A stretch of DNA of 64,000 nt from Escherichia phage AV101. Made by a program: the position numbers and the translations under genes. The notes beneath the pieces are model-generated. The model saw only the letters and a program-made list of their open reading frames with translations. It was not told the DNA's origin and did not search any database. The stretch lies in sequence record OQ973471.1, one strand, 5' to 3'. Positions 1,043-7,401 of the stretch are shown in pieces; the stretch's first letter is position 1; each line of letters starts with the position of its first letter.

Positions 1043-1086
1043 TTTCAAATGGGCGGGGTAATCATACCCCGCCGTGGGTTTATAGA
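1043..1086. repeat. intergenic hairpin element, copy 1 (TTCAAAT-GGCGGGG..CCCCGCC..TTATAG)
   Basis: GC stem GGCGGGG/CCCCGCC with conserved flanks; near-identical copies at 1601-1645 and 16356-16400. Confidence 0.55.
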
Positions 1087-1586
1087 GTAACAAGTGATAC
1101 GGTAAAAACCATCGTCCCGTCTGTTGCCATTTTTCTTGAAACTGGTATGACGCGAGGCTGGCAGAATATCCATTCTTTCTCCATGGACGCCAAGTCCAGC
1201 ATATCCATTTCTGATTCATCGCCTTTGTTCACAAATTTTTCTAGAGAACCATAGACATTAAGCCCCTCCGGGAGTCTGTTTCGATGTTTGTAACAAATGC
1301 GGGCAACAGCTTTGGTTCCGTACGATTTAGAAAATTTTTTGGCCACATGCTTCAGTTCACTGAAGCTAAGACAAGAGTCCCATGTCTGGAACATGTCGCC
1401 TCGTTCAAACATTATCTCTAAACGCGCAACGTCCTCTTTAGGCAACCCACGATAAAGTGTGGTCGTCTGTGGTTCGCGCAATTCTTGCACCAGATCGCGG
1501 ACGGCAGGGGAAACAGTACCGGGGCGCATGATGTGGGACTTATCATGGACGAGGTAAAATAAATCTTGAATTTGTTGATCGGTCAT
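1080..1586 (-). CDS. hypothetical protein
   Basis: ORF with internal start MTDQQIQDLFY; AGGAA RBS upstream. Confidence 0.5.
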   Translation of the reverse strand: MTDQQIQDLFYLVHDKSHIMRPGTVSPAVRDLVQELREPQTTTLYRGLPKEDVARLEIMFERGDMFQTWDSCLSFSELKHVAKKFSKSYGTKAVARICYKHRNRLPEGLNVYGSLEKFVNKGDESEMDMLDLASMEKEWIFCQPRVIPVSRKMATDGTMVFTVSLVTL

Positions 1587-1600
1587 GGTATAGTTCCTGC

Positions 1601-1645
1601 ATTTCAAATAGACGGGGTAATCATACCCCGCCCAAAGTTATAGAA
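1601..1645. repeat. intergenic hairpin element, copy 2
   Basis: Same stem GACGGGGTAATCATACCCCGCC and flanking TTCAAATAG / TTATAG as copy 1. Confidence 0.55.
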
Positions 1646-1885
1646 TTAACTGATGTGCTTCAGAAGAGCGAAGAGGATCGCGGCCTTGGCCTTTACCTTT
1701 CCCACGATGCCTGTCTCGACATCAACTTCTTCAGCAACCCACTCTTTTCCCTTCTTGCTGATGATAACGTCACGGCGCTGTGCGTAGACTTCTTTGGTCG
1801 CATACACACGGCGGAACCCTTTAGCGCGGAGCAATCCCCAATTGCGATCAATTTCTACTGAGGTTTCTACCATTTTGTTCTTCAT
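1646..1885 (-). CDS. hypothetical protein
   Basis: 79-aa ORF with ATG start and AAAGGTAAG upstream. Confidence 0.45.
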   Translation of the reverse strand: MKNKMVETSVEIDRNWGLLRAKGFRRVYATKEVYAQRRDVIISKKGKEWVAEEVDVETGIVGKVKAKAAILFALLKHIS

Positions 1886-1955
1886 GTTATAATCTTACCT
1901 TTCAACCCGGTGAACCCATCGTTCGCCAGTTATTGAATAATAGGACATTCCTTAG

Positions 1956-1988
1956 AGGAAGTAAACCCCTAAAAGTAAAAATCCCCAA
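1956..1988 (-). terminator. rho-independent terminator
   Basis: Hairpin TCCCCAAC-GTTT-GTTGGGGA followed on the minus strand by a T-run. Confidence 0.5.
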
Positions 1989-2007
1989 CGTTTGTTGGGG
2001 ACTTCTG

Positions 2008-2331
2008 TTATTTGCGCAGGGCAACCACGAGTTCAGAGAGTTCACCCATGGTCGGGTCATCGCCTTTACTACCTAGCCACCCGTCGTCGATTTCGACCTG
2101 AAACTCTTCTTCGAGGTCCATTACAATTTCGATAGCGTCCAGTTCATCACCGCCGAGGTCTTTCTTGGTACGGAGGCCAGCCAGCTTGTCCAGGGCGTCC
2201 TCGTTCTGAGATGCCACGTCGTCCAGCAATTTGCGCTTGTCATCGTCACGCCACAGATCCATATTCAGATTGTCGGTGGCGTACTGAGCCAGATGACGCA
2301 TGACTTCAACATATGTTGGTTTACTGCTCAT
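2008..2331 (-). CDS. acyl-carrier-protein-like protein with Glu in place of the phosphopantetheine-attachment Ser
   Basis: DLGGDELDAIEIVMDLEEEF aligns to the ACP motif [20 protein letters not shown]; acidic helix-II pattern retained; GGGAGAAG RBS. Confidence 0.6.
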   Translation of the reverse strand: MSSKPTYVEVMRHLAQYATDNLNMDLWRDDDKRKLLDDVASQNEDALDKLAGLRTKKDLGGDELDAIEIVMDLEEEFQVEIDDGWLGSKGDDPTMGELSELVVALRK

Positions 2332-2342
2332 GCTACTTCTCC

Positions 2343-2368
2343 CAAAGAAAGGCGGGTTGCCCCGCCCG
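2343..2368 (-). terminator. rho-independent terminator
   Basis: Hairpin GGCGGG-TTGC-CCCGCC followed by TTTCTTTGGG on the minus strand. Confidence 0.5.
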
Positions 2369-2373
2369 TTGGA

Positions 2374-4575
2374 TTAGATTTTGATTTCTTTCTCTGTCAG
2401 TTCGGCAGTGACCTTGTACTTCACGCCATCCACTTCAACTTCCATGGTGGACTCTTCCAGGTCGAGGTCGGTGAACCAGCCGTGGCCAGCAACGATACCA
2501 TACACCACTTTAGACAGTGTCTTGTTCAGGGCACGGACTTCGGTGATGGCCGCCTTGGCAGCAGCGTCGATCCAGTTTTCGATCAGCTGTTTCTGTAAGG
2601 CTTCAGGCACGGCAGTGATCATAGGAGACTTCACGAATGCTTCGTACTCTTTCAGAGCATTGGCGATGAACAAGTCACCAGCATTGAGTTTCTTGTTCTC
2701 GGCAATCTTCTTCTGTACCGCTGCGATAGACGGTAGAGATGAAGCGCCAGCGATCTTCACGTTCAGCTCACGGCTCATGTAGAAGTCGGTAGACTCTTTG
2801 GTCTCAGTCTTCGGTGAGAAGCCGTAATCGCGGATGCCGTAGGAGGACAGGAACTCGGCCGCCTCAGCGCCGTACTGTACTGCCAGGCCTTTGGCGTTAC
2901 CCTTACCAACCAGGGCGTCTCGATAGAACTTCAGCACCTTCTGCTTGCCTTTCAGGGCTTCCAGACGGACATTATCCGCAAAGAACTGAGCAGCACTGAT
3001 GTTCTTGACCATGGCGCGGTTGACCAGCGGTACGCTTTCCAGGTTCAGGACAAACACTTCCGGACCACCAAACACGTGGACGCCCATTTCGATCAGCTTT
3101 TGTACAACTTCGATATCAGCCTTGAACGGCAGAGTCTTCACGTTAATGATACCGTCTTTGACGATGGTGTAGTTGCGCCACTGGAAGGTGTCCAGTTCTT
3201 CAGGTAGACCAAACTTCTTCTGTGCGAATTCAGGCACAGCCACAGTACCGTGTTGAATTGTACGCACACTGATGTTCGGGCGCTCGGAGTTATAGACCAA
3301 ATCACTGATTGGCACAACACCCAGATCGTTGGTAGGTTCGAACGTCGGGTTCCACTCTTCGTGTTCTGCCAGCTTGAGAGCCAGGGCTTTACGCTCTTCT
3401 TTGGACTGAGCATTCGCGATCTGTTCTGCCAGCTTGTCTTCGGTGTCGTCGGTTTTCTGCACAGTACCGCGCCCGATACTCTTATAGGAGAACATCGGAT
3501 GCTTGGTAGCAACAGGCACACCAGCTTCAGCCAGGTACGTCAGCACATCAACGACGGTCGTCGCATCTTCAGCCGGAACCAGGTCATAGTCAATACCGTC
3601 AACACCGCGCAGCTGGTCGTCAACGATGGCCTGGGTCAGATCGTTCTTGATGTTGGAATAGTCCTGCTTGGTGAAGCAGTTGCTGTACTGTTTGATGAAG
3701 CGGACGTCGCCCGTCTTCTTCAGCGCAGCCCAAACCAGATCTGCGTCCATAGTGTGTACACCGTAGAACGCCAGCACGTATGCCGCCTGGATGTCCGTCA
3801 GGCTATCCATCTGGTCGATCATGTTAGGGTTTACAACCCACAGCTTGGTGACGCTCTCAGGGATGCTCACATAGCCGACCGGGTGAGAGTCATCGTCCTG
3901 TACTGCCAGCACGGTTGCCACACCGTTTTCGACGTAGATGGCATGGGTGTAGATGACTGGGACATCAACAACCACCTTCGGCACTGAAGACTTCAGTACG
4001 TTTTCCAGCTCGGTCTGATATTCGGTCTGGCCTTCGGCAAACACGTGAGTCGCGCCAGAGCGCTCGGACATCAGAGCCAGCAGTTCGCGGTTACAGTGCC
4101 AGCCGTATTCGATAAATGTAATGTTATCGAAAGCAAATGGCAGGGTCTCAGCAACCAGTAGAATTTCGTTGGTACGCCAGCAGTTGTCATACCCGTCAGT
4201 CATAAATGCCAGGTTGTTGACGTAGCCAGGTTTCTTCAGGTCACGCGCAGTATCCATCGCCAGTTTCAATGGCTCAACGAAACCAGTACAGCCGGATGGT
4301 TGCAGGAAACGGTCGATCAGTTTGTTCAGCTCGCTCAGGTCAGACGCAGCACTAACCTGGCGGCCAGCGAACACAGTACCAAAGTCGCCTTTGGAGGAGA
4401 AATACAGAACGCTCACAGTGTCTTCCGGCTTCACCAGGGATGGCAGGTTCTCCTTCAGGTGCTTGCGGACTTCAGGGAGCGCACGGTACATAGAGCCGGA
4501 AATGTCTACAACGATTACATGGTTGGACGGAGCAGCAGTCGCAACCGCATTCTTAAATTCTAATGATTCAATCAT
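2374..4575 (-). CDS. von Willebrand factor A (vWA) domain protein, about 733 aa
   Basis: N-terminal MIDAS-type motif VIVVDISGSMY (DxSxS) with downstream T/D positions; start taken at MIESLEF with AAGAGAA upstream; about 530 aa of unassigned C-terminal sequence. Confidence 0.6.
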   Translation of the reverse strand: MIESLEFKNAVATAAPSNHVIVVDISGSMYRALPEVRKHLKENLPSLVKPEDTVSVLYFSSKGDFGTVFAGRQVSAASDLSELNKLIDRFLQPSGCTGFVEPLKLAMDTARDLKKPGYVNNLAFMTDGYDNCWRTNEILLVAETLPFAFDNITFIEYGWHCNRELLALMSERSGATHVFAEGQTEYQTELENVLKSSVPKVVVDVPVIYTHAIYVENGVATVLAVQDDDSHPVGYVSIPESVTKLWVVNPNMIDQMDSLTDIQAAYVLAFYGVHTMDADLVWAALKKTGDVRFIKQYSNCFTKQDYSNIKNDLTQAIVDDQLRGVDGIDYDLVPAEDATTVVDVLTYLAEAGVPVATKHPMFSYKSIGRGTVQKTDDTEDKLAEQIANAQSKEERKALALKLAEHEEWNPTFEPTNDLGVVPISDLVYNSERPNISVRTIQHGTVAVPEFAQKKFGLPEELDTFQWRNYTIVKDGIINVKTLPFKADIEVVQKLIEMGVHVFGGPEVFVLNLESVPLVNRAMVKNISAAQFFADNVRLEALKGKQKVLKFYRDALVGKGNAKGLAVQYGAEAAEFLSSYGIRDYGFSPKTETKESTDFYMSRELNVKIAGASSLPSIAAVQKKIAENKKLNAGDLFIANALKEYEAFVKSPMITAVPEALQKQLIENWIDAAAKAAITEVRALNKTLSKVVYGIVAGHGWFTDLDLEESTMEVEVDGVKYKVTAELTEKEIKI

Positions 4576-4783
4576 TGTTCTCTTCGCCTTGTGCGTAAGG
4601 GTTAAGTTCAGACTCATCAGCGGCTTCGATGCGCGTCTTTACAGAGTCCAGCATATTGTTGATAAACTCACGAGACTGCTCCAGCTGAGCCAAGAGCACA
4701 TCCTTTGGAGCATAGTTCTGAATGCAAGCCGGAATACTTTCAGACGTCGCCTTCAGGTCGGTAAAACATTCTTTCAGTATCAT
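4568..4783 (-). CDS. hypothetical protein
   Basis: 71-aa ORF with ATG start, overlapping the vWA gene start by a few nt. Confidence 0.4.
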   Translation of the reverse strand: MILKECFTDLKATSESIPACIQNYAPKDVLLAQLEQSREFINNMLDSVKTRIEAADESELNPYAQGEENND

Positions 4784-4885: not shown

Positions 4886-6550
4886 TCAGATTTGTGAGGC
4901 CAGTTCTGTCACCAGAGGAGCGGCACGGACACGCGCATCTTCCAGCGTTTGGGTGTTGAAGAACTCGCCATCACGATACACCAGCTGGTGCTGGTTGTCG
5001 GCGTCTTGCACCTGATCAAAGGTGATACCGTCAACCAACACTAGTTTACCCTGAGAGTCTTTAATGACTTTAAGGAAACCACGCGCAGACTTTTTAGTCC
5101 CGCCTTTATCGGTCTTCGGCTCTTTGAAGATCTCACGGAATTCACCGTTCACTTTACCAGCCGTGGCTTTCACTGCTGTGCCAGTACTGTCACGGGTGTT
5201 CATCTGGTAGGTGTAGGAACCGATACCGAACACCACGTTGATGGAAGCGAAGTTCCGGTCAGCCAGACGGCTAAAGATCTGGTCTTCACGCGACAGGGTG
5301 ATAGAATCACCGTAGATCAGGCCGATGTGCTCATCCAACAGGAAGTGCCCAGTTTCAGTCTGGGTGCCACCAAAGATCTCCCACAGGCGCTGGATAGAGC
5401 CGACCGCTTCTGAACGGCTGATGATATTACGGTCATCTGCCATCAGAGAGTTGATCGTGCCTTCGCCTGTGATCAGGTGATAGGTGTTCGTCTCTTCGAT
5501 GTGGATGACTTCGGTGCTGCTGGACACGCCGCTGATGTTCAGCGTAGCGCGGTCTTTGAACCCCTCGATACGGTAGCCGCCGACGATGTGCACAGGGTCA
5601 CCAGAGTCAGGGCGGATCACGACTTTACCATTGCGCGCCATGATAATGTCTTTCAGGCGAGGCAGATAGTCGTCGATGACCTGCCAGTAATCCCACGCAT
5701 CAGACACGATGCTGACGATGCCATCAGGATACACGTCCTGCACCAGGCGGCGGAAGGTTTCGAATTCGCCATCCTTCGTGCCCATACACATCACGGCGTG
5801 TTCGGTAGCCGCAACAGAACCAGCAACGACATAATCTTCGTCGATGTCTGCGCCATAATACTCTTCTACGAAGTCCAGGGCAGGGTTGGTGTCGGTGCCT
5901 TTGAAGAACACCAGATGACCGGAACCGGAAGACGCGGCGTCATGCCACCCGCTCATACCACGGAAGGAGAAGTCGTGGCCTTGGTAGTCGATGAACCAAT
6001 GGTCCGGTGATACTCCCGTAGCGAGGGCAGCTTTCACCATCAGTGCCTTGTAATGCAGAGCGATGGTGGCGTTCGTCATCGGCTTCCAGATCTCAGAGCT
6101 GAACACAGTCTCCAGATAGTTGGTCAGCCAGTAGAACTCCGGCAGGGTATTGAACATCACATACACCGGAACACCATACGGACACATGGTGCCTTCAGGC
6201 AGCGCACGGACTTCGATAGGCAGGTAGCCGAGGTCATGCAGGGCTTCAATATGCTCTGTGCCGACGCGGCCTGGACCCAGGACTTTGTTCATGCGACGGG
6301 CATACTTCTTCAGCACCTTGGTCTTCGGGCGCTGGAAGAATGCTTCGTCAAACAGTTCGTGGAACCAGGTCATGAAGCCCTGGATACCCCAGACCACCAC
6401 GCCGTTCTTCGGCAGGTGAGAGTTGAAAAGTTTGTTAGAGCGCGGAGTTCCGTTGGAGAACACCAGCTCACTGCCTTCAGGGAACTGATAGATGTGCCCC
6501 GATTTGTAGAAGTCGATCGCATGGATTGGGTCTAAGTGGCGCATGCTCAT
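4886..6550 (-). CDS. nicotinamide phosphoribosyltransferase family protein (Nampt/NadV-like; possibly Namat of an NAD+ reconstitution pathway)
   Basis: 554-aa protein with strong Nampt-family resemblance across its length (MSMRHLDPIHAIDFYKSGHIYQFPEG... GHDFSFRGMSGWHDAASSGSGHLVFFKGTDT); 4-nt overlap with the upstream PRS-like gene. Confidence 0.85.
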   Translation of the reverse strand: MSMRHLDPIHAIDFYKSGHIYQFPEGSELVFSNGTPRSNKLFNSHLPKNGVVVWGIQGFMTWFHELFDEAFFQRPKTKVLKKYARRMNKVLGPGRVGTEHIEALHDLGYLPIEVRALPEGTMCPYGVPVYVMFNTLPEFYWLTNYLETVFSSEIWKPMTNATIALHYKALMVKAALATGVSPDHWFIDYQGHDFSFRGMSGWHDAASSGSGHLVFFKGTDTNPALDFVEEYYGADIDEDYVVAGSVAATEHAVMCMGTKDGEFETFRRLVQDVYPDGIVSIVSDAWDYWQVIDDYLPRLKDIIMARNGKVVIRPDSGDPVHIVGGYRIEGFKDRATLNISGVSSSTEVIHIEETNTYHLITGEGTINSLMADDRNIISRSEAVGSIQRLWEIFGGTQTETGHFLLDEHIGLIYGDSITLSREDQIFSRLADRNFASINVVFGIGSYTYQMNTRDSTGTAVKATAGKVNGEFREIFKEPKTDKGGTKKSARGFLKVIKDSQGKLVLVDGITFDQVQDADNQHQLVYRDGEFFNTQTLEDARVRAAPLVTELASQI

Positions 6551-7401
6551 TTTACACGTCCTGTATTTTCAGTTTTGAAAGGAAGCCCGTCGGCGGTGAT
6601 GTTCTCCCACCAGACAGTGTCGGCATACACAGCATCATAGATCCCGTCGAAAACAGAGAGACCTTTGCTGAAGATGCCATGGGTAACGAAGAGCGTCATG
6701 TGCTTAGGCTTGTGCTTCTGAAGCTCTTTGCCTAACTCAACGAACGTGCGCCCACCGTCGCAGATATCATCGACCACCACCAGATAGCGGTCTTTGATCA
6801 GTTCAGGGTTTGTAACACTCACCCCAATGATCTCACCAGTCTTGGTATCGCGGTTCTTATGGCCGTAGACAACAGGAACACCGTCCAACGATAGGCTGAG
6901 GGCTTCGGTCTTCTTAGTCGCGCCGCCGTCAGGAGCTACCAACACAGCGTTGTTCCCACGGATGAACCAGCCCAGATACTGACGCACGATGTAATCTTGC
7001 GGGACAACATGAACGTTGTTGATCAGAGAAGACACAACATGGCTGTGAGGATCTTTGATTACCACGCGGTCAAAGTTCATGCTATTGATGAATTCAGCCG
7101 CCCACTTCACAGACAGAGGCTCACCGAAGTCACAATGGCGGTCCTGGCGAGCATACGGGAAGTAAGGGATATACGCATGGAATGTCGTCAGACGGTCCAC
7201 GTTACTCAGACCACGAACGGCGTTTACCAGAAGCGCCAGCTCAATGAAGTCGGCTGATGATTTGATGTGAGCATCAATCACCACGTTCTGAACGTGGCCG
7301 ATAGGGATACCAGACTTTTGGATCTTGATATGTTCCTCACCACCTGGGAAGGTGAAGTGTTTGTAGAACACATCTTGGTCGTTCAATTTCAAACGAAACA
7401 T
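6547..7401 (-). CDS. ribose-phosphate pyrophosphokinase family protein (PRPP-synthetase-like; possibly ADP-ribose pyrophosphokinase Adps)
   Basis: PRPP-binding loop YLVVVDDICDGGRTF and PRS-like N-terminal half; GAGG RBS; co-oriented and overlapping with the Nampt-like gene. Confidence 0.8.
   Translation of the reverse strand: MFRLKLNDQDVFYKHFTFPGGEEHIKIQKSGIPIGHVQNVVIDAHIKSSADFIELALLVNAVRGLSNVDRLTTFHAYIPYFPYARQDRHCDFGEPLSVKWAAEFINSMNFDRVVIKDPHSHVVSSLINNVHVVPQDYIVRQYLGWFIRGNNAVLVAPDGGATKKTEALSLSLDGVPVVYGHKNRDTKTGEIIGVSVTNPELIKDRYLVVVDDICDGGRTFVELGKELQKHKPKHMTLFVTHGIFSKGLSVFDGIYDAVYADTVWWENITADGLPFKTENTGRVK

Follow-up and report, generated by a model that had tools for sequence, protein, structure and literature searches.

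The window (the whole 64-kb stretch of DNA analysed here) comes from an Ackermannviridae phage and is 97% identical over 8 kb to the Escherichia phages LHE287 and YX22. On its minus strand, at 2008..2331, lies a clean open reading frame that begins with ATG at 2331, ends with TAA at 2010..2008, and encodes an acyl carrier protein (ACP)-like protein of 107 aa (12.1 kDa). The protein starts with MSSKPTYVEV, includes the internal stretch KKDLGGDELDAIEIVMDLEEEFQVEIDDGW, and has a pI of 4.2, with 27 Asp and Glu residues against 13 Lys and Arg residues. A Shine-Dalgarno sequence, GGGAG, could be read from the sequence at 2339..2343 on the same strand, 7 nt 5' of the start codon, and an intrinsic-terminator-like hairpin (TCCCCAAC..GTTGGGGA) followed by the T-run TTTTTACTTTT begins 6 nt past the stop codon (1971..2001, minus strand). 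The preliminary description of this DNA had assigned the gene its own RBS and terminator, and both elements are indeed present.

Immediately upstream, at 2374..4617 (minus strand), is the gene of a vWA-domain protein. Its longest open reading frame encodes 747 aa, but translation probably begins at M15 (4575), where homologs and the PHROG model start, which would make the protein 733 aa long. The MIDAS motif is complete (D38xS40xS42, T111, and D141), with T111 and D141 invariant and D38, S40, and S42 nearly so, and three basic residues (R51, H53, and K55) are conserved in the helix next in sequence after the motif. We obtained no informative structural match for the C-terminal ~450 residues. 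Annotations of this family vary and include 'tail protein', 'minor tail protein', and 'sortase target protein'.

The ACP-like gene follows the vWA gene directly, on the same strand, in 24 of 24 Ackermannviridae-type loci, with a spacer that measures 37-47 nt except in the divergent locus L006 (65 nt by script), and the adjacency holds even where the ACP-like proteins share 32-36% identity and the downstream genes differ. Between the vWA stop codon and the RBS of the ACP-like gene, a GC-rich hairpin is followed by TTTCTTT (2350..2367, minus strand). The order of hairpin, T-rich run, and RBS is kept across genera (spacers of L001-L027), and the stems differ from genus to genus yet pair (GGGCGGG/CCCGCC, GGCGGG/CCCGCC, GCCGGG/CCCGGC, and GGGGGC/GCCCCC); in phage Menlow, the hairpin is annotated as a terminator. 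We found no sigma-70-like promoter between the two genes. The proposal that the ACP-like gene lies in an operon after the vWA protein therefore stands as far as gene order and strand are concerned, but because the hairpin is present and no promoter was found between the genes, the arrangement is more aptly seen as read-through across a conserved element that resembles an attenuator or a terminator. Judging from its sequence, the spacer hairpin would be a conserved attenuator, terminator, or mRNA-stabilising element.

Other genes surround this pair on the minus strand. Genes for a nicotinamide phosphoribosyltransferase (NAMPT; 4886..6550) and a ribose-phosphate pyrophosphokinase (PRPP synthetase; 6547..7401) overlap and form an NAD+ salvage pair that is kept in Agtrevirus and Taipeivirus relatives and is not at this position in Kuttervirus SFP10. 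A 175-aa open reading frame at 1080..1607 aligns only with the C-terminal portion, positions 1265-1425 of 1480, of a PHROG model for RNA polymerase ADP-ribosylase (Alt-like) and may be a stand-alone ART domain; at its position, SFP10 has denV and Menlow has unannotated hypothetical proteins. A conserved functional link between the ACP-like gene and the NAMPT, PRPP synthetase, or Alt-like neighbours was rejected, as these are absent there in SFP10 and only partially present in Taipeivirus Menlow. The gene after the ACP-like gene encodes a 79-aa protein of the large family PHROG 804 (1646..1885) and has its own sigma-70-like promoter (1965..1937); most of the related loci inspected likewise have a gene of this size (~79 aa) downstream, sometimes non-adjacent. 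A 23-nt GC-rich palindromic hairpin (GGGCGGGGTATGATTACCCCGCC) occurs in two nearly identical copies, each with one mismatch, at 1052..1074 and 1611..1633, where none would be expected by chance. Both copies precede (T)ATTTGAAA and lie 20-25 nt before a start codon, and the pair has the look of a regulatory or terminator motif repeated between genes. The T4-type late promoter TATAAATA is absent from the whole 64-kb window, though relatives encode a gp55-like late sigma factor, and the window contains no tRNA genes and no Rfam families.

An ACP fold with a carboxylate in place of the serine

Sequence and structure comparisons gave the same assignment for the 107-aa protein. It passed the gathering cutoff of Pfam PF00550 (PP-binding; 23.8 bits against 20.8) and matched PHROG 4154 'acyl carrier protein' at 1e-56. 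It scored under the cutoff for PF14573 (25.6 bits against 32) and missed that of the AcpP equivalog TIGR00517 (33.6 bits against 70.45), for which only residues 54-83 matched. A phmmer search of the PDB sequences returned 98 matches at E ≤ 10; all 60 listed of the 98 were acyl carrier proteins, and the top match had E = 2e-5. In these alignments, D62-E63-L64-D65 falls on the D-S-L-D of the B. subtilis and Plasmodium ACPs, and a MAFFT alignment with E. coli AcpP gave the identical register, with E63 on the Ser. An AlphaFold2 model built from 31 homologs (pLDDT 82, pTM 0.75) showed the ACP fold, with helix II beginning exactly at residue 63. When this model was searched against the PDB with Foldseek, the best 50 matches were all ACPs, with probabilities mostly of 0.9-1.0 and target-normalised TM scores of 0.5-0.8; nearly all of the better viral fold matches were ACPs as well. 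We conclude that the phage protein is a genuine ACP-fold homolog of the PP-binding superfamily. A non-ACP four-helix family was ruled out, as the significant matches, in sequence and in fold alike, are all ACPs.

What sets the protein apart lies at codon 63 (GAA; 2143..2145, minus strand). This codon stands where the DSLD motif has its phosphopantetheine-bearing Ser and encodes Glu, the first residue of helix II, the ACP partner-recognition helix (residues 63-77; 2101..2145, minus strand), which we delimited by DSSP on the model, the alignment, and the invariant columns. The preliminary description had aligned the protein to the helix-II region of ACPs, with DELD in place of DSLD; phmmer and MAFFT agree on this alignment, and the replacement of Ser by Glu is confirmed, far beyond chance. 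An alignment shift that would bring a Ser or Thr to this site was ruled out, since HMMER and MAFFT agree and no Ser is conserved family-wide.

We then followed this site across the family. After clustering at 90% identity, it is Glu in 30 and Asp in one of the 31 protein clusters. The Kuttervirus group (SFP10, Se-B, and others), which a word-indexed search missed, reads GGDDLD at the site. A profile search of 1.84 billion representative proteins added seven full-length, very divergent relatives, all with D-[E/D]-L-[D/S], and the three of them that were looked up sit in Ackermannviridae-like contigs. Site 63 is E or D, never Ser or Thr, in all 31 clusters, the 24 Ackermannviridae-type loci, and the seven distant relatives. 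Because only E and D occur, and these through four codons (GAA, GAG, GAT, and GAC), the site is held as a carboxylate and not just as a residue other than Ser, which indicates, at the level of sequence, selection for the carboxylate. An acidic residue (E or D) at a helix N-terminus stabilises the helix in its own right, a caveat that applies to every reading of site 63. A sporadic mutation or a pseudogene was ruled out by the 271 records with intact open reading frames (see below), in which E/D is fixed through the four codons.

The family offers no substitute for the lost Ser. There is no conserved Ser or Cys among the invariant columns of the alignment, and the sole conserved hydroxyl is that of T94, which aligns with the Thr of the AcpP TTV stretch. 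Because Glu or Asp always stands where the cofactor-bearing Ser belongs, the protein cannot carry acyl groups, and the claim that it could not bear a 4'-phosphopantetheine arm holds for the whole family. A tblastn search with E. coli AcpS found no match in any Ackermannviridae record, and, unlike AcpP, the protein has by this search no phage-encoded PPTase of the AcpS type and no FAS partner. Host AcpS exists, but the ACP-like protein offers it no Ser to modify. In E. coli ACP, S36T alone is inactivating and fails to support growth (PMC3340395). Since the Ser is never present and no AcpS homolog was found, the label 'acyl carrier protein' given in GenBank and PHROG is functionally wrong; it tells ancestry and fold, not function.

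The docking surface, in contrast to the modification site, is retained. Like AcpP (PF00550; TIGR00517), the phage protein is acidic (pI 4.2 versus 4.05) and has the same fold, and D35, L37, D38, E41, M44, E47-E49, and F50 of AcpP are shared; these include the partner-recognition surface (D35, L37, D38, E41, M44, E47, and E48), which is kept across the ACP-like family. Residues 57-84 are identical to E. coli AcpP residues 30-57 at 17 of 28 positions in the MAFFT alignment, against 28% identity over the whole alignment. Around helix II, L59, G60, G61, D62, L64, D65, I67, E68, E74, and D83 are invariant, and E63, M71, L73, E75, E76, and F77 are at least 90% conserved, in line with the earlier claim that the acidic partner-recognition helix is kept.

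Where AcpP has Ser36, the phage family has Glu or Asp. It differs further in an N-terminal helix extension of 28 residues that AcpP lacks (residues 1-28, helix 7-21; 2248..2331, minus strand) and in a long family-specific loop in place of helix III (residues 84-98; 2038..2082, minus strand). The N-terminal helix has invariant Y7, V10, L14, A18, N21, and L22 and nearly invariant M11 and Y17, and the loop has invariant W85, G87, D91, D92, P93, T94, G96, and E97. With a mean pairwise identity of 62%, versus 83% for its vWA neighbour, the ACP-like protein evolves faster, and its docking helix stays fixed despite this. The invariant N-terminal helix and the W85/DDPT loop suggest that the protein may have one specific partner.

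Distribution and known relatives

By tblastn, the ACP-like protein was found in 271 phage records, over at least 80% of its length in all but one. These are essentially all Ackermannviridae, phages of 150-160 kb that infect Salmonella, Klebsiella, Escherichia, Dickeya, Shigella, Enterobacter, and Serratia, and the gene is effectively a core gene of this family. Ser-less ACP-like genes of the same broad clade also occur in three unrelated phage-like contigs, two of them short (L004 and L028), and no vWA gene was detected in any of the three. Such vWA-free relatives favour a stand-alone function.

The vWA family, for its part, extends over 483 phage records, including the T4-like phages RB43 and RB16, Slopekvirus, Karamvirus, Vibrio VmeM-32, Rhizobium jumbo phages, and Bacillus AR9. 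About 210 of its records (T4-like RB43 and RB16, Slopekvirus, Karamvirus, and Vibrio VmeM-32 among others) lie outside the 271 ACP-like records, and we found no ACP-like gene at the three non-Ackermannviridae vWA loci that were checked directly (L008-L010). Co-occurrence of the two genes is not obligate, in that each family also occurs without the other. Our literature searches found no paper on the missing Ser of the Ackermannviridae protein and yielded nothing on expression timing from Ackermannviridae transcriptomics, and the PADLOC defence-system library gave no match for the ACP-like protein.

Ser-less ACPs have a natural precedent in the literature. Like the mACP of P. falciparum, the phage protein has the ACP fold and is conserved but has lost the PPant site, and mACP acts by binding protein, with the substituted residue in the interface (PMC8547962). 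The phage residue is acidic, whereas apicomplexan mACPs have Phe (P. falciparum) or Cys/Gly (Toxoplasma); furthermore, mACP is a eukaryotic organellar protein with a known partner, Isd11-Nfs1, and mACP and the phage protein have no close sequence relationship. The phage protein also resembles the obligate apo-ACP mutants E. coli S36T and S. elongatus S39A in being non-modifiable yet ACP-folded, and these mutants provide an experimental precedent for a 'dead ACP' as an inhibitor. Unlike them, it is not AcpP-identical elsewhere; it is ~28% identical to AcpP, presents a carboxylate, and has extra conserved elements. Apicomplexan mACP and the laboratory apo-ACP mutants are the closest systems in concept, from which its viral origin sets the phage protein apart.

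Other phage ACPs (PHROG 5934; phiCbK, Olleya phage Harreka_1, and Pseudomonas phage HRDY3) share the fold and the annotation. The metagenomic phage ACPs P0046, P0050, and P0058 have a similar GDD.T.G loop and, unlike the PHROG 4154 family, keep the Ser of DSLD. The gene of P0058, a protein with DSLD and the DDPT loop motif of the Ackermannviridae protein, comes right behind a gene for a DAHP synthase/chorismate mutase fusion, with ThiF/E2-like genes close by (metagenomic phage-like contigs L067-L069); to judge by its sequence, P0058 it may represent a functional-carrier sister group of the Ser-less Ackermannviridae family.

Ser-less D-[E/D]-L-D ACP-like domains are also widespread in bacteria (proteins P0085, P0087, P0103, P0108, P0109, P0124, P0126, P0140, P0159, and P0167; loci L035-L066), in a list that is enriched for E/D because the query profile has E at the site. 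Some are predicted lipoproteins or secreted proteins of Planctomycetes, Verrucomicrobia, and alpha-proteobacteria, for which a bacterial genome scan for the lipoprotein type returned 33 loci. Others are stand-alone proteins of ~78 aa (Rikenellaceae and Babeliales) or C-terminal domains of larger proteins (Kitasatospora, 1199 aa; Nostoc, ~241 aa; Bacteroidales, ~500 aa; Sphingobacterium, 1266 aa). P0159 scores above the NCBIfam AcpP equivalog cutoff, though it has DELD and a signal peptide. The apicomplexan mACP study reported that no Ser-less ACP had been found outside Apicomplexa and chromerids (PMC8547962); the bacterial D[E/D]LD domains contradict this impression of an apicomplexan-only trait and form a class that is open to testing.

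Candidate partners of the ACP-like protein

Every ACP uses its acidic helix II to dock on basic patches of its partners. With this helix retained and the arm lost, the sequence makes a protein-binding mimic the most likely description of the phage protein, and we tentatively favour a non-catalytic binder that would use the ACP docking surface on a host ACP client. The protein would dock through helix II, the carboxylate of Glu/Asp63 would take the place of the absent arm's negatively charged phosphate, and the N-terminal helix and the Trp/DDPT loop would supply partner specificity. The preferred targets would be host AcpP binders, such as PlsB, AcpS, MukB, SpoT, IscS, or an Lpx/Fab enzyme, on which the protein would act during infection as a dead-end competitor or as a constitutive pseudo-cofactor.

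Several observations on ACPs are consistent with such a role. In ACP complexes, the phosphate of the arm is typically held by an Arg or Lys of the partner, for example R6 of Isd11, and Plasmodium mACP functions without the Ser, with the substituted residue in the partner interface (PMC8547962). Overexpression of obligate apo-ACP suppresses the growth of E. coli, and apo-ACP inhibits PlsB, as summarised in the part of PMC4736557 that cites Keating 1995. MukB is stimulated equally by apo- and holo-AcpP (PMC8602292). The role of a decoy for host enzymes, as raised in the preliminary description, is plausible by analogy with these cases.

The abundance of the host protein narrows what such a mimic could do. 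Host AcpP is present at 86-358 thousand copies, or about 100 µM (PMC8602292), so that a competitor would need either very high expression or a much higher affinity for one target. The conserved terminator-like hairpin upstream of the ACP-like gene, with no sigma-70-like promoter in between, speaks against high expression. Taken together, the high AcpP level and a gene that does not look highly expressed point to a high-affinity binder of one target instead of a general decoy, and the extra conserved surfaces of the protein are consistent with such a one-target mode of binding. Helix II is equally conserved in the exported bacterial Ser-less ACP-like lipoproteins, which are out of reach of cytoplasmic ACP clients, and its conservation alone is therefore no proof that the phage protein binds a FAS-type partner.

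The adjacency of the two genes in all 24 loci points to a possible phage partner instead of a host one. Glu or Asp residues of the ligands of integrin, CMG2, and factor B coordinate the MIDAS metal of vWA/I domains. The ACP-like protein might likewise be dedicated to the vWA protein and serve it as a regulatory or adaptor subunit, whose Glu/Asp63 would complete the MIDAS metal coordination. We regard this principal and credible rival as less likely than a host target, yet it would explain both the restriction of the site to E/D, the very residues that serve as MIDAS ligands, and the invariant adjacency, with its short spacer and shared strand. The complete, conserved MIDAS motif with its basic R51, H53, and K55 also fits, as does the co-transcription by read-through that the lack of a detected promoter between the genes suggests. 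The two proteins were moreover detected in the same preparation of CsCl-purified Sajous1 virions, with one spectrum each (PMC10892097); for the ACP-like protein, this single spectrum is the sole experimental trace and attests to expression, perhaps only as contamination in the virion preparation. What weakens the reading is that the two families are distributed independently of each other, given the ~210 of 483 vWA records outside the ACP-like set, the L008-L010 loci that have no ACP-like gene, and the Ser-less ACP-like genes of other phages that have no vWA neighbour. In addition, a conserved terminator-like hairpin separates the two genes, and Ackermannviridae genomes are collinear overall, which makes the adjacency weak evidence by itself.

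Improbable in our view is a role as scaffold or activator subunit for a different enzyme of the phage, such as one of nucleotide, NAD, or thymidine-hypermodification metabolism, in the way that mitochondrial ACP is a structural subunit in LYR-protein complexes. PPant-independent structural roles of ACP have a precedent (PMC8547962), NAMPT and PRPP synthetase are encoded in the same region, and 10-12 kb away lie a DUF8224-family homolog and an open reading frame in synteny with the gene for a 5-hmdU DNA kinase on a related contig. The NAMPT/PRPP synthetase and ADP-ribosyltransferase-like neighbours are, however, absent at that place in Kuttervirus SFP10, and no specific candidate partner emerged. 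Slimmer still is the prospect that the protein is simply small and acidic, for instance a mimic of nucleic acid or an anti-defence factor, and that its ACP ancestry is incidental. Its low pI and 27 acidic residues, its fast evolution relative to the vWA neighbour, and its surroundings of accessory genes would suit such a protein, but conservation focuses on the ACP docking helix and on one structured loop rather than on overall charge; the PADLOC library gave no match, and the best 50 PDB matches, all of them ACPs, include no DNA-mimic fold. That the protein is still a carrier, modified at Glu/Asp63 or elsewhere by a non-canonical chemistry such as ADP-ribosylation by the nearby Alt-like enzyme, is very improbable: carboxylates can accept ADP-ribose, and the Alt-like fragment (1080..1607) and NAD salvage genes are close by, but these neighbours are not conserved with the ACP-like gene, the family has no conserved Ser or Cys and only K56 and T94, and we know of no transferase for such a Glu/Asp site.

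Beyond this locus, it is conceivable, and we put it forward with caution, that phages and, separately, many bacteria have repeatedly turned ACP into an arm-less, carboxylate-tipped binding module, which in Ackermannviridae would serve either as an AcpP mimic (directed at MukBEF, PlsB, AcpS, or SpoT) or as a ligand of the vWA metal site. If true, either use would be a previously undescribed role of the ACP fold in virus-host conflict, and the annotation 'acyl carrier protein' would be functionally wrong in hundreds of genomes. ACP is among the most connected hub proteins of bacteria, and a substrate-less viral copy of its docking helix would be a natural probe, possibly an inhibitor, of the processes that depend on it, among them the synthesis of lipids and LPS, the stringent response, the assembly of Fe-S clusters, and MukBEF. 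Ackermannviridae are widely proposed for phage therapy and for the biocontrol of Salmonella, E. coli O157, Klebsiella, and Dickeya. In these phages, an ACP-like core gene is routinely mis-annotated as metabolic, under the PHROGs category "moron, auxiliary metabolic gene and host takeover", and its product is a family-wide, cleanly defined, and experimentally tractable oddity of therapeutically relevant phages.
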